A DNA stretch of 14,540 nucleotides from a virus. A model generated the notes under the pieces. The model saw nothing but the letters and a program-made list of their open reading frames with translations. It had not been told where the DNA came from and did not search any database. Location: IMG/VR virus record IMGVR_UViG_3300045988_150167; one strand, given 5' to 3'. A program made the translations under genes and the position numbers. This document shows positions 1,422 to 14,540 of the stretch, in pieces (position 1 is the stretch's first letter; each line of letters begins with the position of its first letter).

Positions 1422-1606
1422 CAATCCGTGATTTTTACCGGGCGTGCCTGTCAATGCAGCCTAAAACAAGTATCCGTGTGTATGATAACGACCGTTGCAT
1501 TTACAACGGTGAATATGGTGACTTGCCTTATACACTTGCAAAACATGAGTTTGAAACCTTGCTAGTTAATCCTATTATGGAGTGGAAATTTTATTTTAAC
1601 TCTTGA
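1418..1606 (+). CDS. Small hypothetical protein (62 aa), paralogue of the right-end gene 14008-14256
   Basis: ATGA start/stop overlap with the upstream gene. Shares DFYRxC...P....VY....GE(Y/F)...P...E.L with the 82-aa right-end protein. Confidence 0.6.
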   Translation: MTIRDFYRACLSMQPKTSIRVYDNDRCIYNGEYGDLPYTLAKHEFETLLVNPIMEWKFYFNS

Positions 1607-1631
1607 CAGGCACCCTATAATATGATACTAT
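1603..1631 (+). promoter_or_regulatory. Near-consensus sigma70/sigA promoter for the structural (late) operon
   Basis: TTGACA (1603-1608), 17-nt spacer, TGaTACTAT (TG at 1623-1624, -10 hexamer 1626-1631). It lies between the last left-arm early gene and the structural genes. Confidence 0.7.
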
Positions 1632-1632
1632 G

Positions 1633-1728
1633 AAATCGGGAAAAGATGCGCAAGCTATACGGACGGAATCCGGCGCACGACCTTGTAGCGGGTCAAGAGT
1701 CTTTTCCCGATTTTTGTATGTCCGTCCG
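1633..1728 (+). promoter_or_regulatory. Highly structured leader: attenuator/terminator, 5' stabiliser or candidate small RNA
   Basis: A perfect 14-bp stem (1633-1646 with 1700-1713) encloses two hairpins (1647-1651/1673-1677 and 1679-1682/1691-1694), giving a three-way junction. A T-run follows at 1711-1715. A further 8-bp complementarity (1660-1667 with 1721-1728) has pseudoknot topology and ends 12 nt before SD 1741-1746. Confidence 0.5.
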
Positions 1729-1752
1729 CTCTGTGAAAGTGAGGTGTAAACC

Positions 1753-1905
1753 ATGGAAGAGATTAGCACTATTATCCAGCAGGTGGGTTTCCCGATTGCG
1801 GCGTTTTTGTTGATGTGGTGGCAGAGTAACACGACCATCAAAGAAAACACCGCTGCTATTGTAAAACTCTGTGAGCACATGAGCAAAATGGACGGTGAAG
1901 CATAA
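1753..1905 (+). CDS. YvrJ-family-like small membrane protein (50 aa); possible holin-like function
   Basis: GAGGTG SD at 1741-1746, ATG at 1753. MEEISTIIQQVGFPIAAFLLMWWQSNTTIKENTAAIVKLCEHMSKMDGEA has one hydrophobic segment with the conserved GFP motif and the size typical of the YvrJ family. Below the ORF-track cutoff. Confidence 0.6.
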   Translation: MEEISTIIQQVGFPIAAFLLMWWQSNTTIKENTAAIVKLCEHMSKMDGEA

Positions 1906-3635: not shown

Positions 3636-3648
3636 CTTTTAATAATAG

Positions 3649-3679
3649 CCCCGTGTCAGTTATGGCACGGGGTATTTTT
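3649..3679 (+). terminator. Rho-independent terminator/attenuator after the capsid gene
   Basis: Stem CCCCGTG(TC) 3649-3657 pairs with (GG)CACGGGG 3664-3672 around a 6-nt loop, followed by TATTTTT 3673-3679. Confidence 0.8.
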
Positions 3680-3694
3680 GAAAGAGGTGAGATT

Positions 3695-5170
3695 TTGAAT
3701 ATCACGCTATATCAATTTTCCAAAAAATTAAACAGCACCGCCCGCCCGTCCGGCACGTCAAAAGGCGTGCAAGGGCAGTTGCGGGAATCTTGCAGCATGT
3801 TAGCGCCGGAAATTGGTTTTGTGTCGTTTGGTCAAACGGAAAGTCCGCACGCGTGGAACTATGCATACATTCCAGATTTTGGCAGATTTTATTATATTGA
3901 CAACTGGACATGGACAGCTGGCATGTGGTATGCGAGTATGACCGTTGACCCTCTGGCAAGCTGGCGCGATGCAATCGCCAACAGCACTGAATATATTGTA
4001 AGAGCTGCAAGCGCTGTCAACCCTAATGTTATTGATACAACATACCCAACATTTGCAGGTTGCAATCAAGCGCATGTAGATATTACAGGGCTTTTTACAG
4101 ACCAACTTTCACGTGGCACATTTATCATGTCGGTGCAGGCAGGCGGAGACCAAGCCAAGTTTGGCACAAACACTACGCTACTTTGCACGCCCGGCGCAAT
4201 GTATAATTTCGCGCAAAAGTTACTTGCAAGCGCCGACTACTTGCAGATTGACCCCAACGAGATTAGCGCGAGTCTTTCCAAAGCCTTGTTTAATCCTATA
4301 CAATATATATCATATTTGATGTGGCTGCCTGTTAATGTTTTGCCGTCAGACCTCAAACCCTTGTCAAGTGTCCCTCTTGGCTGGTGGTCAATTGACGCCG
4401 GTACAGGGTTTTTTGTTCTAGACGAAAGACACGATAAAGTAACATGGGAACACACTCTTGCTATTCCGCGCCACCAGCAGGCAGACACAAAGCATAAATT
4501 TTTGCGCGCGGCACCGTACAGTGAATATAAATTATATATGCCGGGGTTTGGGCTGATTGATATTGATGCAAGTAAGCTGTATAATATGGATAGCTTAACA
4601 ATCAGTATTGTGATTGACTTGTACACCGGCAACATGACCTTGCAGTTTATGGACGGTGACAAGCCGTTTCAAACTCTTTCTGGATGTTGCGCGGTGCAAG
4701 CGCAGATTGGGCAGATTGCAAGCATGGTTACAAGCGAAAGCGGAGTTGTGCAGGCCACTGTTGGTGGATTAGTTGGCGGCGCTCAGGCATTTTTTCAGCA
4801 GGCTGCGGACATTACCCAAAAAGTGCATAACTGGATTAACGGTGCGGATACATTAGGTTTAGGCCAAAACGCCGCAGCAATTGGCAACGGCATCCAGAGC
4901 GGCGCACAGCAGGCAACCGCAGAAAGTGTTTCAAAAGGCGGGCAAGGTGGCGTTGCGGAATATGGTATTACCCCTTATTTACAATGTAAGTTTTGGAATC
5001 TGGTTGACCAAGCCCCTGAGCACCGAGGCTATCCGCTGTGCGAGAAACGCAAAATTGGCAGCTTGTCCGGCTATATCATGTGTTCGGACAGCGATTTTTC
5101 CGCGCCTGCAACCTCAATGGAAATTAGCGCAATCCGGGAACATCTTAATAATGGTTTTTATTTTGAGTAA
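3695..5170 (+). CDS. Tail knob / distal tail tube protein, phi29 gp9-like (491 aa)
   Basis: GAGGTG at 3684-3689 lies 5 nt before in-frame TTG 3695; the tracked GTG 3653 and ATG 3662 lie inside the terminator hairpin. Also has a Gly/Ala/Gln-rich segment (VGGLVGGAQA...GNGIQSGAQQA). The C-terminus (GYPLCEKRK...ISAIREHLNNGFYFE) resembles the phi29 gp9 C-terminus (GYKINRVKK...LQEIRTIFDNGITLW). Confidence 0.7.
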   Translation: MNITLYQFSKKLNSTARPSGTSKGVQGQLRESCSMLAPEIGFVSFGQTESPHAWNYAYIPDFGRFYYIDNWTWTAGMWYASMTVDPLASWRDAIANSTEYIVRAASAVNPNVIDTTYPTFAGCNQAHVDITGLFTDQLSRGTFIMSVQAGGDQAKFGTNTTLLCTPGAMYNFAQKLLASADYLQIDPNEISASLSKALFNPIQYISYLMWLPVNVLPSDLKPLSSVPLGWWSIDAGTGFFVLDERHDKVTWEHTLAIPRHQQADTKHKFLRAAPYSEYKLYMPGFGLIDIDASKLYNMDSLTISIVIDLYTGNMTLQFMDGDKPFQTLSGCCAVQAQIGQIASMVTSESGVVQATVGGLVGGAQAFFQQAADITQKVHNWINGADTLGLGQNAAAIGNGIQSGAQQATAESVSKGGQGGVAEYGITPYLQCKFWNLVDQAPEHRGYPLCEKRKIGSLSGYIMCSDSDFSAPATSMEISAIREHLNNGFYFE

Positions 5171-5183
5171 AGGAGTTGATTAT

Positions 5184-5735
5184 ATGGCAAGCTATCCACA
5201 ATGTATCACAGACGAGAGCACAATTACAGTGACCGCAGCATATCCGTATTATTCGGACGGCTCTCACCACGGCGGCATTGACACCAAGCATCCAACTGAT
5301 TTTTTGGCGTTTGCACCGCAGGCCGGGACGATTGTCACGGCGCACACTTGGCAAGGCGGTAAAACCGGTAACGATAGTTGGGGCAATTATATTGTGGTCG
5401 ATATGGGCAACAAGCGTTATTGGTTGGCTGCGCATTTTAAGACACAGACACACAAGGTCGGAGAGGTGCTCAAAGCTGGCGATTTAATCGGCGTACAGGG
5501 GCAGACCGGCAATGCAACCGGCATCCACACTCATTGGGAATATTGGGTAGGCGGTCGCTCTACTCGATACCGTCAAGACCCGTCACAGATTTTGGGCATC
5601 CCAAACGCAGTAGGTAAGTATGATGTAACATGGAGTGCAGACAATCCGCCCGGCCCCGGCCCGGAACCGCCCACGCCGGGTAAAAAAGCAATCCCGGTAT
5701 GGTTATTGCTTAAAATGGCAAGGAGGTACACCTGA
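5184..5735 (+). CDS. M23 (LytM/lysostaphin-type) metallopeptidase, a peptidoglycan hydrolase (183 aa)
   Basis: AGGAG at 5171-5175, ATG at 5184. Has the HxxxD motif (SHHGGID) and the HxH motif (GNATGIHTHWE). A Pro-rich linker PPGPGPEPPTPG is followed by the short basic/hydrophobic tail KKAIPVWLLLKMARRYT. Confidence 0.85.
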   Translation: MASYPQCITDESTITVTAAYPYYSDGSHHGGIDTKHPTDFLAFAPQAGTIVTAHTWQGGKTGNDSWGNYIVVDMGNKRYWLAAHFKTQTHKVGEVLKAGDLIGVQGQTGNATGIHTHWEYWVGGRSTRYRQDPSQILGIPNAVGKYDVTWSADNPPGPGPEPPTPGKKAIPVWLLLKMARRYT

Positions 5736-6646
5736 TGCAAGCAGCGCCTTATATGTACGATTATGTTAACACAGAGGTAAGCCAGCACAGTCCCAGCACT
5801 GTACACACCAAAAACACAGAGCTTCAACGCTTTTTTGCCCGCTACTTACTGCAAAAAGCAATGTCTGTTTTTAAGTGGGACTTGCCGGAAACATGGGATA
5901 GGGACTATTTTTTGTATGTTTTGTACGGCATCGGCTATATTGCTGTGATTAACACAGATAAATACGGAGTTATTCCGCAGCAGTGTGGGCTTGACGGGTA
6001 CAACATTTTTTACCAGCCCAAACGCGCCCTTATCACAAATCCCTTGCTTAGAGGTTTGCGCCGGTTGGATATTGGCACGCAATGCACACTAATCAAGCTG
6101 CAACCTGATTATGGCAGCGTTATGGACTTGGTGGGTTTTTACGCCGACATGATGGCATTGACCGCGGAGACCGCAGGGGTCAACCTTGTCAATAGTCGTC
6201 TATCCTATGTGTTTTTCGGGAAAAATAAAAACGCGGCGGAGAGTCAAAAGAAATTATTTGACAATATCGCAAGCGGCGAGCCTGCAACATTTGTCGATAC
6301 CGCGTTGTATGATGTCCAGAGCGGCAACCCCTCTTGGATACCTTTTCAGCAAAACGTGGGGCAAAATTATATTGCGGGTGACGCTTTGGCAGACCTGCGC
6401 AAGTGGGAAATGATGTTCGACACGGACGTGGGCATCCCTAACGCGAACACAGACAAAAAAGAACGCCTTATTAGCGATGAGGTCAACGCGAATAACGTAG
6501 AAGTAACCAGCAAAGCAGACTTGTGGCTTGACCAGCTTCAAAAGAGTTTTGCACAGACAAGCAAAATGTTTGGCGTTAAACTTGGCGTTGAGTGGCGCAA
6601 CAAACCGCAAGTAAGCGCAGGAAGTGAGGGCGGCGAAAATGAGTAG
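5735..6646 (+). CDS. Portal / head-tail connector (upper collar), phi29 gp10-like (303 aa)
   Basis: TGATG overlap with the upstream gene, AGGAGG SD. Size matches gp10 (309 aa). NANTDKKERLISDEVNANN resembles gp10 NANLEKKERMVTDEVSSND. The N-terminal FFARYLLQKAMSVFKWDLP resembles gp10 [22 protein letters not shown]. Confidence 0.88.
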   Translation: MQAAPYMYDYVNTEVSQHSPSTVHTKNTELQRFFARYLLQKAMSVFKWDLPETWDRDYFLYVLYGIGYIAVINTDKYGVIPQQCGLDGYNIFYQPKRALITNPLLRGLRRLDIGTQCTLIKLQPDYGSVMDLVGFYADMMALTAETAGVNLVNSRLSYVFFGKNKNAAESQKKLFDNIASGEPATFVDTALYDVQSGNPSWIPFQQNVGQNYIAGDALADLRKWEMMFDTDVGIPNANTDKKERLISDEVNANNVEVTSKADLWLDQLQKSFAQTSKMFGVKLGVEWRNKPQVSAGSEGGENE

Positions 6647-7262: not shown

Positions 7263-9728
7263 ATGTTTGATACCAGATGGCCTTATACCGATTTCCACAA
7301 CTTAAACCTTGATTGGATTCTGGAGACGCTCAAAAAGCAGGATGCGGCTATTGCGGATTTTATTTCGCTTAATAGCATTACCTACGCAAACCCGTTGCAG
7401 TGGGATATTACCCGACAGTATCCCAAAAATCAGGTTGTGCTTGATACCAACGGAGACGGCTATTTGAGCGTGCAGCCGGTGCCGGTTGGCGTTGAGATTG
7501 CTAACACCGACTATTGGACAAAAATTGGCAATTTTTCCGAATTGTGGAGCTCGGTCAAATTGGCAATCACGGCAGCAGATGAGGGACTCAAAACCACGGC
7601 AAGCGCAGACCGTGCAAGCGGCGACCTTGTATGGCTCAATAATATCCTATATGTCTGCACCACCGCAATTACACGCGGCACCGAGTACGGCACTAACAAC
7701 ACCGCAAAAACCACGATTGATGCAAGACTTGCCAATTTGGCAAACGCTGTGAGCACGCTGCAAAACAACATTACAAATATTAACAACACGTTGCCCAACA
7801 AGATTGACAAGGACACCACCGGAGACCTTGCGCAGACGGTCAGCGGCAACTATAATCAAACGGTTGACGGTAACACGGCATTGACGGCCAAACGTTTCGA
7901 TATCTATACCCAATTTGGCAAGGCTTTTACCTCTCATTCTGGCGTAACATCAATCGGTAACGATAATGTCCCGACATGGATTTACGGCAAAGAGCTTCGG
8001 TTGGCATCTACACCGCTGGTAAACATTGATGATAATTACGCATATGCTACCATTGGCACAAGTGTTGATGCAGAGACAAAATTTTTGGTAAGCCGCACCG
8101 GCAAAATCCCCGATAGTATCAAACCGTCCCCCCACAGCATTGAAGAATTTCAGGAACTCAAAAAAGACGGCACCGATGATATTACCGCAACCCTTAACAC
8201 ATACACCAAACAATTCCCGCTGTTCATCCCGGTCGGCATCTATAAAATCAGCGCACCGGTGCAGCTCAAACATAGCTTGTACGGTGCAAGCGCGTCCCGT
8301 GACCCGGCACGCGGCAGCAGTGACACAATATTGCAGTATACCGGCAATCCGACAGCGTTTGGCAGCCTTGGCGTGCTCACTGTATCCGGCAATGATGTAG
8401 ATGGCAATGTCGTCATTGCAAATCTGGATATTATCTGTAACGGCATGATTGGCGGTATTGTGTATACCACGGACGTATACACCGACAATTACATCTATAA
8501 TGTAAGTATCAGCGGCGTTAAATCCTATGGCGTGTACTTGCAGCCCAGCACTAGCAAGCTGAGCCGGTATTGTTACATGGATAATGTAACGGTATGGGGC
8601 TTTAGTGATGTGCATCCCGCGGAGCGTGTCGCCGGTAACGTTGCGTTTTATTGGGGCGACAAGTCTCCCGACTGCGATTGCAATAACCTTTTGGCGATGG
8701 TGTGCCAGACCGGTTTTGACTGCCGTACTAACGTGTTTGGCTGCAACTGGATTACCTATAATGGTATTCCGGCAGGCGGCACTGGTGGCGCGGACGCTAA
8801 TACATGGTGGGAAAACACCAATGGCCTTAAAGTCACTAACAATGACGTACACATTACTAACCTGTATCTTGATACTTGCCGCCGTGGCATTGTATTTGAC
8901 GGGCCGGGCAAGGCGGCTGCATATATTAACAACCTGATTTACACTGTTAACGATGACACGGCAACCACAGGAGAGGGCAACGCAGCAATTGCACTGATTG
9001 GCACTAGCCCTAGTCCGCAGTTGACGGTTGATGGCGGTGTAATTAACCGCAGCGCCAAAGTCTCCACCACGGTGCAGAGCATCGGGCAATACCCGGTTAC
9101 AGCCATGATGTGCAAAATCAATAATGTGTATATCTACACTAAGCGAGAGTATATTTTTACGGGCAACGGTCAGTATATTTGCAAGGCGGGCGAGCACCGG
9201 TGTATTGACCTTGCAATTACAGACCAGACCCAGTACACCGTTGATGGGCATTCGGAGACCGGAGACCCTGAACAGTATAAGGCATTTGCCTATATTCCGG
9301 TGCCGTCCGACAGCAACACCTCACAGGGTTGTATCCGTATCTGTGATCGTAACGACATTGATTATACTGTCTTTATTTCCAACAATCCGGAATCTGGCGA
9401 TTTGTTTGCAATCAGCGCTTTTGATAACCGCAAACTCAATCAAGCCATTTATGGGGCAACAGCCGGCACAGGACGGACAGTTACTTGGGATGTAGTCACA
9501 GACCTTGACAAGTTGTATTATGTCAATGATGGTGCTGCTATCATCCTTTATTTTAAGCGCCCTGCATCTTATGCAGTTACGGTGCAGGTGAGTGGCTTCT
9601 TACAGGGCAATTCTCCTGTCATCCTCGACCGCATCCGCAACATGGACGGCACTCCAATGGACTTCCCGCGCTGGAATAATCATGACGGCATGACTGCTAT
9701 CAAGATTTTGCGCCCTAACATTTCTTAA
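7263..9728 (+). CDS. Tailspike / pre-neck appendage-like protein with a pectate-lyase-type beta-helix (821 aa)
   Basis: Sits at the position of phi29 gene 12 with similar size (gp12 is 854 aa). The N-terminal YTDFHNLNLDWIL motif is common in Firmicutes phage fibre/appendage N-termini. The central DGTDDITATLN...IPVGIYKIS is the pectate_lyase_3-type signature. Confidence 0.75.
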   Translation: MFDTRWPYTDFHNLNLDWILETLKKQDAAIADFISLNSITYANPLQWDITRQYPKNQVVLDTNGDGYLSVQPVPVGVEIANTDYWTKIGNFSELWSSVKLAITAADEGLKTTASADRASGDLVWLNNILYVCTTAITRGTEYGTNNTAKTTIDARLANLANAVSTLQNNITNINNTLPNKIDKDTTGDLAQTVSGNYNQTVDGNTALTAKRFDIYTQFGKAFTSHSGVTSIGNDNVPTWIYGKELRLASTPLVNIDDNYAYATIGTSVDAETKFLVSRTGKIPDSIKPSPHSIEEFQELKKDGTDDITATLNTYTKQFPLFIPVGIYKISAPVQLKHSLYGASASRDPARGSSDTILQYTGNPTAFGSLGVLTVSGNDVDGNVVIANLDIICNGMIGGIVYTTDVYTDNYIYNVSISGVKSYGVYLQPSTSKLSRYCYMDNVTVWGFSDVHPAERVAGNVAFYWGDKSPDCDCNNLLAMVCQTGFDCRTNVFGCNWITYNGIPAGGTGGADANTWWENTNGLKVTNNDVHITNLYLDTCRRGIVFDGPGKAAAYINNLIYTVNDDTATTGEGNAAIALIGTSPSPQLTVDGGVINRSAKVSTTVQSIGQYPVTAMMCKINNVYIYTKREYIFTGNGQYICKAGEHRCIDLAITDQTQYTVDGHSETGDPEQYKAFAYIPVPSDSNTSQGCIRICDRNDIDYTVFISNNPESGDLFAISAFDNRKLNQAIYGATAGTGRTVTWDVVTDLDKLYYVNDGAAIILYFKRPASYAVTVQVSGFLQGNSPVILDRIRNMDGTPMDFPRWNNHDGMTAIKILRPNIS

Positions 9729-9732
9729 CAGC

Positions 9733-9767
9733 AACAGCCCCTGCCAATACGGCAGGGGCTGTTTTTT
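9733..9767. terminator. Bidirectional Rho-independent terminator at the convergence point
   Basis: An 11-bp GC-rich stem CAGCCCCTGCC (9735-9745) pairs with GGCAGGGGCTG (9751-9761) around a 5-nt loop. It is flanked by AA on the left and TTTTTT on the right, between the tailspike stop (9728) and the ATPase stop (9766-9768). Confidence 0.85.
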
Positions 9768-10830
9768 ATACTTTTCGACTTGAGATTTTCGCGCCCTCTT
9801 TGAAATACTTATCTAGTAATATTTCACAGATGGGAGATTCGAAAACCACAATATCAGTATAATAGTAAGCAAGACGGAACCACGCAAAATGGGCGTTAAA
9901 CATCTGTATACCGCGTTCGGTACTTTCGTATACCGGGCAACTACCAGACCTGTGCGTGGTAACATAATATTTTTCTTTCGATTTGTGCTTATAAATTTCA
10001 AGCTCACCCATGACACATACAGGTTTATATTCAATAATGTTTTGGGGTTTTATCTGGCTGTATTCCTGCCGAAAATCGTTATTAAGTGCCATGGCACTGT
10101 ATAACTTATCTTTGGTAAGACGGTACAAAGCAGTATTTGCTTTTTGTATAGAGATGGGAGAGTGTTGCAGCATTACAAGAGTAATACCGCGCTCTGTGTC
10201 TTGCCACATTTCCGTCTTGGTATCAAGCATTTTTTGAGCGCGTGAAACAAGCCCCATGTCCAGAAACAGCGGGTTTGCAATATCGTTTGCGTTGGCAAGA
10301 CACAGCATTTTAAGAGGCGGTTCGCCTTTTAATTCTCTGTTACGATTAATAGTTTCATACGCGTTATAAAATGCAGCAGCTTCATTTTTCAAGGGGCGTT
10401 CGTGTTTTTCCGGGATAAATTCATCATAGATGCAGATTTTGCAATCCTCTGCGCTAAAGCCTCGCATATTGGAGATTGTGGACAGTGCGCAGGTGTAACC
10501 ATACGGCAGGCCGCCGGTGTATTTGCCCTCATCATCAACATCATAAAATGCGCTGCTGCCTTTGGAGATTGGAAAAGGCTTAATGCTTAAACCCATATCT
10601 TCACAGACCGGCTTTATGGGACTGAATTCCGGCTTATTAACAAGGTCAATCGCGGTTTGCGTTCGGCGCATTAGCATAAATGTAATGCGATGCTCAAGCA
10701 CATATTTTAATGCGCCGTATGTTTTACCGGTGCCACGTCCGCCGACAACCATAATATAAGGCGTTGGCAAGCCCATAATATAATCCATGTTCAGGTATCC
10801 GCTGTCTAGGTATAGTTTGTTCTTTTTCAT
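9766..10830 (-). CDS. DNA encapsidation (packaging) ATPase, phi29 gp16-like (354 aa)
   Basis: Walker A VVGGRGTGKTY (gp16 has IGARGIGKSY). Walker B ICIYDEFIPEK (gp16 has IVFDEFIREK). LANANDIANPLFL resembles gp16 LSNAVSVVNPYFL. Confidence 0.88.
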   Translation of the reverse strand: MKKNKLYLDSGYLNMDYIMGLPTPYIMVVGGRGTGKTYGALKYVLEHRITFMLMRRTQTAIDLVNKPEFSPIKPVCEDMGLSIKPFPISKGSSAFYDVDDEGKYTGGLPYGYTCALSTISNMRGFSAEDCKICIYDEFIPEKHERPLKNEAAAFYNAYETINRNRELKGEPPLKMLCLANANDIANPLFLDMGLVSRAQKMLDTKTEMWQDTERGITLVMLQHSPISIQKANTALYRLTKDKLYSAMALNNDFRQEYSQIKPQNIIEYKPVCVMGELEIYKHKSKEKYYVTTHRSGSCPVYESTERGIQMFNAHFAWFRLAYYYTDIVVFESPICEILLDKYFKEGAKISSRKV

Positions 10831-10851
10831 CTTTTACTCGCTTCATATTTC

Positions 10852-10885
10852 AAAAGGGCGGCGGTTTTCAAGCCGCCGCCCTTTT
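10852..10885 (-). terminator. Rho-independent terminator between the SSB and ATPase genes
   Basis: A 9-bp all-GC stem GGGCGGCGG (10856-10864) pairs with CCGCCGCCC (10873-10881). It is flanked by AAAA/TTTT, so a U-run follows the stem on either strand. Confidence 0.75.
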
Positions 10886-10917
10886 GTGGGGAGGAATTAT
10901 GTCAAGAATGGAAATGG

Positions 10918-11268
10918 TTAGTTCATCTTGCAACCGATATAATGACGGCCTTGCTTGCTTTCGCCACCAATGACTTCAACGTCAACACTGGCGAGGTCTG
11001 CGCCGTACTGGTTGGCAACATCGATGATTGCTTCAAAGTCGCGCTTAAACGTGCTGGAAATGGTACTGAAAGTGTCGCCCTCGCTGGTAAGCACTGCAAG
11101 CACTTCCAGCGTTTCGCCCTTGGCGTTTTCGTCCTCGTAGAGGGCGTAAGCCTCAATGTTAAAAGTTGCGCCTTCAAGCGTTTTCATGGGGCGTGAGTCG
11201 GGGTTGCGGGTCAGGTTGTACGCCTGCTTCATGGACAGATTTTCGGGAAAGCTCTTGATGATTTTCAT
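10918..11268 (-). CDS. Single-stranded DNA-binding protein, phi29 p5-like (116 aa)
   Basis: AAGGAG SD. Size matches p5 (124 aa). NIEAYALYED...GETLEVLAVLTSEGDTFSTISSTFKRDFEAIIDV...VEVIGGESKQG parallels remembered p5 IEANAIAQYK...[32 protein letters not shown]...VKVVQGTSSKG. Confidence 0.6.
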   Translation of the reverse strand: MKIIKSFPENLSMKQAYNLTRNPDSRPMKTLEGATFNIEAYALYEDENAKGETLEVLAVLTSEGDTFSTISSTFKRDFEAIIDVANQYGADLASVDVEVIGGESKQGRHYIGCKMN

Positions 11269-11322
11269 TGTTGTTACTCCTTTGTTCGTGTTTGTGTTTT
11301 GTAGCTTTCTTGCTACAATTAT

Positions 11323-11351
11323 ATGATACTACATTTATGACCAATTGTCAA
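11323..11351 (-). promoter_or_regulatory. Promoter for the SSB gene (minus strand)
   Basis: On the minus strand: TTGACA (11351-11346, overlapping the polymerase stop codon), 17-nt spacer, TATCAT (11328-11323). A small hairpin GTAGC/GCTAC (11301-11316) lies in the predicted 5' UTR. Confidence 0.6.
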
Positions 11352-13444
11352 TATCCATTTTCAAAATATTCATCTAGCCTGCCAATACCTTTCCGGGTGT
11401 AGTCGCAGCGCAAAAGCAAGTCCATGTATTCCGCAGTTATTCCCAGTTTATAGGTGCTTTCGCGGATAACAACGTTTGATGTAATTGACAATGTGTGACC
11501 GTCTATTGTAATGCTGTCTATCTCTGGACTATCATTGTATATAGATTCTGTTCCGCCAGCGTCCCAGAAAACAAAACCGGGCTTAAATGCGTCAATGCCG
11601 CCGTGGCGTTCCAACTCTTTTGCGCCCTCTTTTTTGTTTACACCTGCGATTGTGCAGCACAATGGGCTTTCCGGCGTTTCACGGTAACAATATTTTTTCG
11701 CGCCCAACGTGGCAAATTCGCACATATCATGTTCAGGTTCAAAAACGCCCATATAATGCATTTTGCCGGAGGGGTCAGCAGCATAAGCACCTGAGGCTTT
11801 ACTATCTTTGATTCGTGCTTTGTTGTATTTTGTCCAGTCAATGTCACCCAAATATTTGACAGAATCGGTATCGCAATAAACAAAGCCATCCCCTGCAAGC
11901 TCTATGCCCTCTTCCAGCCTGTAGCGTGCATTGGCTGTCACCCATACGCCCCATTGATAGCACAAAAACGCGTTGCGCAGATTATGCGACAAGATATTTT
12001 CAATTGGCGTTTTTTCATCAATTTCAAACTCTTCATCCGGTGTGTATAAAATGGAGCGTTTGCCCGGGTCTTGTGCCATCATACCGTATATACTATTGAG
12101 CTTGTTTTTGCTTTTCATGTAGTACAATTCTTGACCGGGTACATTTTTCAGACTGGTTTTTGCGCGGTAATAATCTATTGCACATTCAATCAGTTCACGC
12201 GGCAATTTGGCATATGTGGATTGCCAACAATCATATGCCCGGAATCCAGAAAACTTGTACTCTTTAAGGATAATTGCAAGGTCAACGTCTGTCACGGTTG
12301 TTTCGAGGTATTTTGCGCTCAATATTCGCCCGTTGTCGCGGTCGGGGTCTATCACGTTTCGGCTCTTATCAATCGTTAGATATGGACAACCCCAACAGGG
12401 GTTGATTAACTCAACGTCTGCTAATGCAATACGCATTATCAACGCTTTGCGGTGCTTGTTGAGTTTCCGTTTGAGTCCATCCAAAGTTATTTCGCCAATA
12501 GGCTCAAAAGCTCGCATTGGGTACAGACAATTGCACAACACATCCGGGTAACTGCTGCTTCGGTCTGCGCTCTGGATTTTACCACGCAGCACTTGACCGG
12601 TATAATAGCGGTTGGCGTGGGTGTTTCCGCCGCGAAACGCTTCACGCAGCATTGTGTATAATTCCGCGTCAGGCTGGATTGCGCCGAGACGTTCCAGCCC
12701 TGCGCGTTTCATCGCGGCGCGTGCATCGCGGCGCACATATCCGGTAGAGGTTAGAGGGATTGTGTACAGGTTGTCATTATCGTGGCGCATTTCGATTGTC
12801 AGGGCTTCACACAGACCTAGTACATCGTTTACACAATATTCTAGTTCATCATCCGACAACGGAGTCCAGGGATAGCGGGGTTTATTGTAGTCAAATTTTA
12901 CACCGGATAGTTTACCGTGAGCAACGCCCATTTTGTGGGTGTATGCATCAAGGCTCATATTGCTATGCAAATAGCTGCAACGAAATTCAAAAAAATCACC
13001 GTACATCGTGCATTTCAGGACTTTACGGCAATCAACTGCAAAAATCTCATCATTTGTAAAATGGTAAATTCCGCGCAAAAACTGAAACTCGTATGACAGA
13101 TTGTGAACATACACACAGAGCTGCAAATGATAATCTTCTTGAGATTGTTCTTGCATGCAAGCTTCAAGGCTGGCACACAATGCTTCAAATTCATCCCATG
13201 TTCTGCCAACAACAGTTAGATTAATAGGTTCTGCAAAATGCCATTGCCAAATATACATGACAGCTTGTTCTATCGACTTAATGCGAGTTGTTTCAATATC
13301 AAACGCTGTCACAATATCAAGCAATTTTGTCTTTTTAGTTCTTGTGATTTTCCGTTCCAAAACAGGCAGCGCGGCGAATTTCTCTAGCGGAAAATCAATC
13401 ACCGAACAAATGGCTTGCCCATTCTTCAAGGTCTTTACTTTCAA
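11348..13444 (-). CDS. Family-B DNA polymerase, protein-primed type (698 aa)
   Basis: Exo I FDIETT, Exo II NLSYEFQF, Exo III YCVNDVLGL, motif A DRSSSYP (phi29 DVNSLYP), motif B KLNSIYGMMA (phi29 MLNSLYGKFA), motif C YCDTDS (identical to phi29) and KxY GAKKYC. The start is TTG at 13444, preceded by AGAGGTAAGG. Confidence 0.93.
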   Translation of the reverse strand: MKVKTLKNGQAICSVIDFPLEKFAALPVLERKITRTKKTKLLDIVTAFDIETTRIKSIEQAVMYIWQWHFAEPINLTVVGRTWDEFEALCASLEACMQEQSQEDYHLQLCVYVHNLSYEFQFLRGIYHFTNDEIFAVDCRKVLKCTMYGDFFEFRCSYLHSNMSLDAYTHKMGVAHGKLSGVKFDYNKPRYPWTPLSDDELEYCVNDVLGLCEALTIEMRHDNDNLYTIPLTSTGYVRRDARAAMKRAGLERLGAIQPDAELYTMLREAFRGGNTHANRYYTGQVLRGKIQSADRSSSYPDVLCNCLYPMRAFEPIGEITLDGLKRKLNKHRKALIMRIALADVELINPCWGCPYLTIDKSRNVIDPDRDNGRILSAKYLETTVTDVDLAIILKEYKFSGFRAYDCWQSTYAKLPRELIECAIDYYRAKTSLKNVPGQELYYMKSKNKLNSIYGMMAQDPGKRSILYTPDEEFEIDEKTPIENILSHNLRNAFLCYQWGVWVTANARYRLEEGIELAGDGFVYCDTDSVKYLGDIDWTKYNKARIKDSKASGAYAADPSGKMHYMGVFEPEHDMCEFATLGAKKYCYRETPESPLCCTIAGVNKKEGAKELERHGGIDAFKPGFVFWDAGGTESIYNDSPEIDSITIDGHTLSITSNVVIRESTYKLGITAEYMDLLLRCDYTRKGIGRLDEYFENGY

Positions 13445-14256: not shown

Positions 14257-14540
14257 TTTCAAATTCTCCCTTTCTGTGTCAGTGTGACGTATAGCGATAT
14301 GTACCCTTATGGTACAATTATAGCATAGAACGCCTTGCGGGTACATGTACTATATGCTCATGCAATGGACATTTGTATCATTCTTATAACTAGCAATTGT
14401 TACTATGTACACCGGCACGCACTCCCCTGCCCTGCTTGCAGGTGTACATGCACCATAGACATGTGTTCGCAGGACATGCACAAGCAACTGTACAGAAGTC
14501 TGTAACGGTGGGAACCGGAATATTACAGAATTCTGTACTA
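14257..14540. repeat. Right inverted terminal repeat (ITR-R)
   Basis: Mirror copy of 1-288 (see ITR-L). The last base of the window pairs with the first base. Confidence 0.95.
14317..14325 (-). promoter_or_regulatory. Candidate early promoter (perfect extended -10) inside ITR-R
   Basis: The minus strand reads TGcTATAAT (14325-14317), about 60 nt upstream of ATG 14256. Confidence 0.55.

Follow-up and report, generated by a model that had tools for sequence, protein, structure and literature searches.

The prohead RNA (pRNA; Rfam RF00044) is known from the Bacillus phages phi29, PZA, B103, M2/Nf, SF5, and GA-1. In phi29, the C-E-D region of the molecule binds the prohead, helix A docks the ATPase, and the pairing between the bulge and the D loop is intermolecular and builds an RNA ring on the prohead; the members of the family have very low sequence similarity, while the structure is kept (PMC5066667). 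In reviews of 2016 and 2024, pRNA was described as confined to phi29 and closely related Bacillus phages (PMC5066667, PMC11476376), and the use of RNA in the motors of other phi29-like phages was described as an open point (PMC8472413). We analyzed a structured RNA element at positions 1633–1713 (+ strand) of the IMG/VR virus record IMGVR_UViG_3300045988_150167, a complete linear phage genome of 14,540 bp, hereafter called the window. The element appears to represent an undescribed RNA family with the architecture of pRNA, which is present also in cultured phages. It is pRNA-like on structural grounds, not a detectable member of RF00044, and is probably a distant homologue of the phi29 prohead RNA; with moderate confidence, we read it as a miniature pRNA analogue.

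According to the consensus line of RF00044, helix A is followed by one linker base, the C helix, a bulge of 9 nt confined to the 5' side, an E helix of 4 bp whose loop has 6 nt, the 3' strand of C, UUU, the D hairpin, and the 3' strand of helix A. The window element (Table 1) had the same parts in the same order. Its predicted 5' and 3' ends pair as a helix A closing a three-way junction, and its E helix of 4 bp also carries a small loop (5 nt, compared with 6 nt in the consensus). The bases pairing with the D loop are located at the 3' end of the bulge, beside the E helix, as in phi29 (AACC/GGUU), and the Watson–Crick complementarity of bulge and D loop covaries between phages, as it does among pRNAs. 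The likeness extends to the genome: the phage has a gp10 connector, a gp16 ATPase, and protein-primed replication, and the element lies directly downstream of its own promoter.

Both RNAs were recovered by one common descriptor, which comprised a helix A of 7 bp or more, a C helix, a 5' bulge of 5–10 nt, an E hairpin, a D hairpin, and at least four Watson–Crick pairs between bulge and D loop. The pRNA was the top match in the phi29 genome (score 31) and the only one scoring at least 24; in GA-1, it was second (score 30) behind a probable false positive inside the polymerase gene (score 31). The element was the top match in the window (score 33; next best 27), and the elements of the other clades (scores 27–34) were top or tied for top in their genomes. 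A score of 31 was reached by none of 12 random genomes of the window composition and by none of 12 of the phi29 composition.

Table 1. Positions of the RNA element, its flanking signals, the genes related to it, and candidate RNAs of cultured phages.
Feature	Genome	Position	Strand	Remarks
−35 hexamer TTGACA	window	1603–1608	+	invariant in 11 close relatives
Extended −10 TGaTACTAT	window	1623–1631 (TG 1623–1624, TACTAT 1626–1631)	+	after a 17-nt spacer
Helix A, 5' strand	window	1633–1647	+	1638–1647 within the RNA from its own promoter
Helix C, 5' strand GCGC	window	1648–1651	+	
5'-side-only bulge AAGCUAUA	window	1652–1659	+	8 nt; counterpart of the phi29 CE bulge
E hairpin CGGA/CGGAA/UCCG	window	1660–1672	+	loop 1664–1668
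Helix C, 3' strand GCGC	window	1673–1676	+	
D hairpin GACCU/UGUAGC/GGGUC	window	1679–1694	+	loop 1684–1689
Helix A, 3' strand	window	1699–1713	+	
T-run TTTTT	window	1711–1715	+	possible release point, RNA ~78 nt
UCCGUCCG	window	1721–1728	+	complement of the E 5' strand and loop (1660–1667), between element and Shine–Dalgarno sequence; accessory
Shine–Dalgarno sequence GAGGTG of holin gene	window	1741–1746	+	
Holin gene	window	1753–1905	+	phrog_4898, E = 2e-7; first gene of the head/structural operon (synteny)
Connector gene, phi29-type (gp10 family)	window	5735–6646	+	PF05352, E = 1.3e-18; presumed prohead docking partner
DNA encapsidation ATPase gene, gp16-type	window	9766–10830	−	PF05894, E = 9e-13; presumed partner of helix A
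Protein-primed family-B polymerase (PolB) gene	window	11348–13444	−	
CPD2 RNA	L049 (MH999279)	~5607–5735	+	candidate, from folding
phiCP7R RNA	L048 (JQ729990)	~16440–16590	−	candidate, from folding

Fold, covariation, and bulge/D-loop pairing

The coordinates that the first-pass annotation of this DNA had given for the promoter, stem, hairpins, T-run, downstream complement, and an open reading frame (ORF) were all confirmed. The stem of helix A (AAATCGGGAAAAGA, 1633–1646; TCTTTTCCCGATTT, 1700–1713) is a perfect helix of 14 bp, which can be lengthened by a U1647–G1699 wobble, and hairpin 1 consists of a 4-bp helix, the 8-nt 5' bulge, and a second 4-bp helix capped by CGGAA. The three-way junction proposed at the outset was also the minimum free energy (MFE) fold and was moderately better than shuffled sequences (z = −2.0 for 1630–1760 and z = −2.6 for 1638–1716). 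The folding energy of a single sequence is modest evidence; the strong evidence is comparative. Two other candidates at this place were rejected. The 39-codon ORF is present at 1630–1749 (+) as annotated, but it is not conserved as a gene: its ATG was replaced by ATA or ATT in five close relatives, and the substitutions keep base pairs. The reverse strand scored 15–23 bits with the covariance model versus ~100 bits for the + strand, on which G–U pairs are frequent.

The sole close relative in GenBank was MT835998, an unannotated human-faecal contig with 86.6% identity. The nearest cultured relatives were the Amedibacillus phages AD70P2 and AD70P3 (Guelinviridae), with a capsid identity of 28%, and the host is therefore probably a gut Firmicute. 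A search of IMG/VR with the capsid protein yielded 36 related loci with capsid identities of 38–92% from human gut and rumen samples. The element of the window and that of MT835998 were ~97% identical, with the promoter spacer diverged. BLAST found the element in the closest clade only; in two more distant loci, the inner hairpin was identical and the outer stems were different yet still complementary. Covariance models R1 and R2, built from the sequences of the closest clade and of those two loci, found one + strand copy upstream of the capsid gene in all 34 loci retaining upstream DNA, with E-values from 1e-5 to 1e-25 for 33 loci and of 0.006 for L033. Thus, the element is universal in this set of relatives. 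Further copies were found in four GenBank gut contigs with capsid identities of 29–35% (MT836263 and MT836115, and, more weakly, MT835901 and MT836587). The copy of phage AD70P3 fell below the cut-off of the covariance model and was recognized when the intergenic gap was folded and with the help of the first structural descriptor.

In an alignment of 33 sequences, 94.7% of the pair cells were paired, versus 61.7% in shuffled alignments and 35–48% with slid partners, the alignment having been fitted to the nested structure, which favors pair counts. The compensatory substitutions proposed earlier as a check on the stems were found in these relatives, with changes on both sides in 28 of the 34 pairs. 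RNAalifold returned the same fold independently (23 of 26 pairs compensatory), and the individual MFE folds of divergent homologues mostly gave the same junction. All 15 pairs of helix A were changed on both sides across the relatives, and 96.7% of their cells were paired. Helix C was paired in 100% of the cells, and its two inner pairs covaried (CG/GC/UA and GC/CG/AU/UA). The E helix was likewise 100% paired, with covariation in all four pairs, while the D hairpin was paired in 94.7% of the cells, with covariation in three of five pairs. The E loop was CGGAA in 33 of 33 aligned sequences; the variants noted, in more distant members, were CAGAA (L033, L034, L037, and L039) and CCGAA (phage AD70P3). 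Covariation holds over about a dozen clades sharing almost no primary sequence outside this one loop; the structure is real, is under selection, and is not a chance fold.

The 3' part of the bulge, GCUAUA (1654–1659), is complementary to the whole loop of hairpin 2, UGUAGC (1684–1689). This pairing had been overlooked in the first-pass annotation; it is absent from the covariance model, yet every clade keeps it with sequences of its own. At least 12 distinct complementary versions occurred, including GCUAUA/UGUAGC of the window, GAACA/UGUUC, GGACA/UGUCC, GAGU/ACUC, GGCA/UGCC, UGCAC/GUGCA, GACC/GGUC, UGUGC/GCACA, GUCCA/UGGAC, GAUCA/UGAUC, AAUCA/UGAUU, and AAAAGGAA/UUCCUUUU; weaker 3-bp versions were present in three clades. 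The last of the listed versions belongs to L043 (MT835901), where 8 bases (AAAAGGAA) of a 9-nt bulge pair with the downstream UUCCUUUU tract. Within the clade of the window, L002 carried two substitutions in this pairing, both of them pair-preserving. The three core pairs were 100% paired, with 3–5 pair types each. The mean Watson–Crick run was 4.4 for a bulge with its own D loop and 2.2 for cross pairs, and the observed sum was reached by none of 20,000 permutations. The element variant of L043 (6018–6110) also has an 8-bp C helix and a poorly structured D region.

Searches with the covariance model and descriptors gave nothing convincing in the Astrithrvirus phages (Acinetobacter phage Phanie and a Shigella phage), Clostridium innocuum phage CI644P4, Enterococcus phage Athos, MT835873, MT835826, and MT836155; therefore, small phi29-like phages do not all have the element, or it has diverged beyond recognition in these. 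The pattern GCGCA-N8-GG-N-CGGAA-N-CC-N-GCGC was sought in genome contigs, and the matches listed were in GC-rich bacterial genomes. These matches were rejected as homologues: the covariance model gave at most 23 bits on 80 loci taken from the list, for most of them only over the stretch forced by the pattern, and we regard them as chance matches that are uninformative on distribution.

Promoter, genome layout, and clade-specific features

The promoter upstream of the element had 10 of 12 consensus matches plus the TG of an extended −10. Calling it the best in the genome proved roughly right, with two other sites reaching 11 of 12 without TG: one at 4557–4585 inside a gene and one at 11351–11323 (−). 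The latter (TTGACA-17-TATCAT) lies right after the polymerase gene and upstream of the p116 and ATPase genes. In MT835998, TTGACA and TGATACTAT were kept in spite of the diverged spacer, and an internal TATAAT at 1616–1621 was not conserved in relatives. A TTGACA-type −35 was found upstream of the element with a spacing of 16–18 nt in every clade except the rumen clade, and a −10 of the form TAnnnT, often with TG, in every clade but one. Because the −10 box ends 1–8 nt before the first pair of helix A across the clades, the transcription start is predicted near G1638, at the base of helix A. The distance between −10 box and helix A was exactly 6 nt in L036 and L037, and a GAAATC discriminator was common to the window and L036. 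The annotated pRNA of GA-1 begins 7 nt after the −10 of promoter A1b, which is the same arrangement.

Layouts were compared by mapping the proteins of the window onto representative relatives with tblastn. Twelve clades including AD70P3 had a colinear order: polymerase, packaging ATPase, RNA, holin, small genes, capsid, and connector, with the RNA starting 2–220 nt after the ATPase gene and before the head genes. Whatever the layout, the element marked the border between two transcription units. In most clades, it runs into an AU-rich spacer with the next Shine–Dalgarno sequence within 5–45 nt, and this sequence was never part of the structure. Which gene comes next depends on the clade (a holin gene, a gene for a CW_7-like protein, or others). 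The rumen clade has promoter, holin gene, and RNA in this order, which places the RNA within the transcript after the first gene; therefore, neither a 5'-terminal position nor a fixed downstream gene is required, and such a placement speaks against a leader that serves one particular gene. By synteny, the RNA is tied to the packaging and head genes.

A comparison of modules, which took in L015, L021, L029–L032, L034, L036, and L038–L043, showed that the polymerase-p116-ATPase module (9766–13444, −) has been inverted in the window clade and now occupies the right end, and that the RNA has stayed with the head module. The early operon upstream of the RNA element comprises MazG-like, DNA-methyltransferase, and orf62 genes, and an M23 peptidase is also encoded in the window. 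Perfect inverted terminal repeats of 222 bp are located at 1–222 and 14319–14540; the repeats of phi29 and phiCP7R are 6 and 25 bp, respectively. Several terminator-like hairpins were observed: a strong one at 3648–3673 right after the capsid gene, a 13-bp hairpin at 9733–9763 between the convergent rightward and leftward operons, and a 13-bp GC-rich hairpin (AAAAGGGCGGCGG/CCGCCGCCCUUUU) with a U-tail at 10843–10891 (−; z = −5.5), between the p116 and ATPase genes and just upstream of the latter. The last explains weak Rfam matches at that place; such matches in the window were confined to 10843–10891 and 9692–9766, both terminator-like hairpins.

Other features were confined to one or a few clades. 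The T-run after helix A was found in the window clade only, with U-rich tails in some rumen members; no comparable T-run was present in the clades of L015, L021, L029–L032, and L036. The five outer pairs 1633–1637/1709–1713 lie upstream of the predicted start; only transcripts that read through from upstream or start earlier would contain their 5' strand, and one of these pairs varies as U–A, G–C, and G–U. Downstream of the element, TCCGTCCG (1721–1728) is exactly complementary to CGGACGGA (1660–1667). The pseudoknot drawn from this complementarity in the first-pass annotation is real in the sequence, and a complement of 7–10 nt occurred in all members of the window clade; elsewhere, conservation was limited to an analogous 9-nt anti-E-loop GCUUCCGGC downstream of the element in L040 (~5395–5403), and nothing above chance was found in the other clades. 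It is therefore not part of the core structure. The T-run and downstream complement are accessory features that may release the free RNA, terminate read-through from upstream by way of the five outer pairs, or mask the E loop in read-through mRNA; the segment 1721–1728 in particular might be such a mask or a target of the free RNA.

Proposed role and rival explanations

In the mechanism that we propose, rightward transcription from the strong sigma-70-type promoter at 1603–1631 would start near 1638 and yield an RNA of ~78–83 nt. The RNA would fold with its paired ends as helix A, with one arm formed by the C helix, the 8-nt 5' bulge, and the CGGAA-capped E hairpin, and with a second arm formed by the D hairpin. 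By analogy with phi29, the bulge/D-loop pairing would be intermolecular, and copies would join head to tail on the portal vertex, the GCUAUA of one copy pairing with the UGUAGC of the next. The invariant E loop would contact the connector or capsid at the portal vertex, and helix A would project outward and dock the gp16-type ATPase driving DNA packaging. In the window clade, the T-run could release the free RNA, with read-through continuing into the holin and head genes.

Several observations weigh against such a packaging RNA. RF00044, which gave 145 bits on the phi29 pRNA as a positive control, gave no match at E ≤ 10 on the whole window or on 1600–1760 (161 nt); the Rfam pRNA model, named in the first-pass annotation as a check, thus did not place the element in that family. 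Conversely, the covariance model of the element does not find the phi29 pRNA. The element is 78–83 nt long, compared with 120 nt for the active and 174 nt for the full-length phi29 molecule; its helix A of 9–15 bp (uninterrupted in the window) is without the CCA bulge that binds gp16; and it has no domain II, with no second domain before the Shine–Dalgarno sequence. The phi29 connector binds pRNA by an N-terminal basic RKR cluster, and no RKR-like basic cluster was found in the N-terminus of the window connector. Bulge/D-loop complementarity does not prove ring formation because three-way-junction RNAs with intramolecular bulge-loop pseudoknots exist, e.g., the tetrahydrofolate (THF) riboswitch. 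A steric argument against pairing in cis, namely that a 6-nt D loop paired along its whole length could not reach the bulge, was dropped, since such intramolecular pseudoknots occur elsewhere. The main weakness is the 3' end: a separate terminator, present in phi29, is missing after helix A in most clades, and a discrete small RNA would therefore need processing there; otherwise, function in a longer transcript is implied.

One rival reading is a cis-acting leader of the head/structural operon. Folded with an intramolecular bulge-loop pseudoknot, it would bind a phage or host factor or RNA polymerase, and it would act by put-like processive antitermination, by protein-mediated control of translation or stability, or as a ligand sensor. 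We consider this unlikely. The position directly after a strong promoter and 5–45 nt before the first Shine–Dalgarno sequence in most clades is consistent with it, as are the absence of a terminator between element and mRNA in most clades, the in-operon terminator-like hairpins (e.g., 3648–3673) that could call for antitermination, the invariant CGGAA loop suggestive of a conserved binding partner, and the anti-E-loop sequence in the leader of two clades. However, the Shine–Dalgarno sequence was never inside the structure and its distance is variable, no conserved alternative fold or expression platform was found, the downstream gene differs by clade, and the rumen RNA comes behind the holin gene. 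Rfam scans at E ≤ 10 of the whole window and of 1600–1760 gave no riboswitch, leader, or ribozyme family, and no other Rfam 15 family matched the element; with the Shine–Dalgarno sequence outside the structure and variable neighbors, a riboswitch or translational leader was rejected. A leader would also leave the point-by-point match to the pRNA topology and the shared descriptor unexplained. An attenuator supplying temporal control, the third alternative of the first-pass annotation, found no support: there was no conserved alternative structure and no occlusion of the Shine–Dalgarno sequence, most clades lack the T-run, and the rumen RNA comes after the first gene.

We give very little credence to an intrinsic terminator or attenuator as the main explanation, i.e., a device that stops read-through from the early operon or attenuates the 1603 promoter to time late expression. 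The boundary position in all layouts and the stem followed by TTTTT would suit it, and the five outer pairs, one of which keeps pairing while it varies, would form only in read-through RNA. Outside the window clade, however, the T-run is missing, and U-rich tails occur in some rumen members; two covarying hairpins, an invariant loop, and a covarying loop-bulge pairing are not needed for termination; no antiterminator alternative and no conserved alternative fold were found; and the element was not listed by a simple terminator scan. Termination of read-through, which the first-pass annotation had also offered, may still be an added role in the window clade, while most other clades have no T-run. 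A trans-acting RNA with another task, either a small RNA pairing with mRNA leaders via its E loop or a self-assembling scaffold unrelated to the motor, seems improbable to us. It would agree with the dedicated promoter and paired ends, with loop complementarity that could drive multimerization, and with the complement of the E loop region at 1721–1728 in the window clade and in L040, but this anti-E target is absent from most clades, and the packaging motor is favored both by the architecture and by the genomic association with ATPase and head genes. The miniature pRNA analogue, the first alternative of the earlier annotation, was best supported by the comparative data, among them the bulge/D-loop pairing that had gone unnoticed there, in spite of the missing RF00044 match.

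Comparison with RNAs of other phages

Small self-cleaving ribozymes (hammerhead, twister, twister-sister, pistol, and hatchet) were rejected because no Rfam match was found at E ≤ 10 in 1600–1760. The same Rfam library detected a pistol ribozyme (RF02679, 55 bits, above the gathering score) in the phi29-like gut contig L051 (MT835826) at 16259–16334 (−). In Enterococcus phage Athos (L052, LR990834), a non-Bacillus phage of the Salasmaviridae, the interval ~4590–4790 between gene 8 and the scaffolding gene holds a promoter-like site, a non-coding stretch of ~190 nt that is structured, and a strong hairpin of the terminator type; RF00044 gave no match on this stretch, and its topology looks different.

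Intrinsic terminators and attenuators share with the element of the window clade a stem and T-run between two transcription units, whereas the 53-nt 'loop' of the element is a conserved, covarying structure of two hairpins. The put RNA of HK022 is also a small structured RNA directly after a strong phage promoter, heading a long operon with internal terminators. It consists of two stem-loops without a closing helix, three-way junction, or loop-bulge pairing; the element differs from this description, and the Rfam scan, which the comparison covered, was negative.

Larger candidate RNAs of ~115–150 nt, with the same topology and position as the element, were found by folding the non-coding gaps upstream of the head genes in Clostridium perfringens phages (Guelinviridae); as for the element, the gap lies upstream of a small gene and the capsid gene. 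In the CPD2 RNA, helix A is long and interrupted, and the C helix (7 + 3 bp) is broken, as in phi29, by one bulged base on the 5' side. A bulge of 6 nt leads to the E hairpin (4 bp, loop of 6 nt), and a UU linker precedes the D hairpin, which adjoins helix A directly; bulge and D loop are complementary (GUCA/UGAC). In the phiCP7R RNA, the corresponding pairing is GCCA/UGGC, and the E loop UGGAA resembles the CGGAA of the element. Two groups were distinguished, CPD2/phi24R/CPS1 and phiCP7R/phiCPV4/phiZP2/CPS2, with conservation of at least 97% within the groups in 10 and 17 phage records, respectively, except for CPS2 (91%). At the few positions where phiCP7R, phiZP2, and CPS2 differ, some changes in the C and A helices are compensatory. 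About half of the records carry no annotation in this region; the others list a hypothetical coding sequence under the match. No description of pRNAs in these phages was found in the searchable literature. RF00044 gave no match on these RNAs either and is therefore too narrow as a family test.

The C. perfringens RNAs are larger than the element, with long interrupted A helices, C helices of 7–11 bp, and dimensions nearer to those of the phi29 pRNA, and they have no detectable sequence similarity to the window element. Their intermediate size between the phi29 pRNA and the window element supports a common ancestry. The element itself differs from the phi29 pRNA in its C helix (4 bp versus 9 bp) and in its junction linkers (0–1, 0–2, and 3–5 nt versus 1, 3, and 0 nt). 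We incline slightly to the view that packaging with pRNA is the rule in a large and mainly uncultured radiation of phi29-like phages that infect Firmicutes of gut and rumen (Guelinviridae and relatives). In this radiation, pRNA would span sizes from ~150 nt (C. perfringens phages) to ~75–80 nt (the minimal form), and the window element would be the smallest natural prohead RNA known. If true, the RNA component of the motor is ancient and widespread, its minimal natural architecture is defined, i.e., which helices, loops, and junction features are dispensable, and dozens of natural loop-loop pairs become available for pRNA nanotechnology; the question is directly testable in the culturable Amedibacillus phage AD70P3 and in the C. 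perfringens phages. An unannotated RNA family is also added to gut-virome annotation. Compared with the phi29 pRNA, which is encoded at the left genome end, the minimal form would keep only helix A, the CE-type bulge, the E hairpin, and the D hairpin and would stand as the first element of the head-gene operon, beside the ATPase gene in most relatives.

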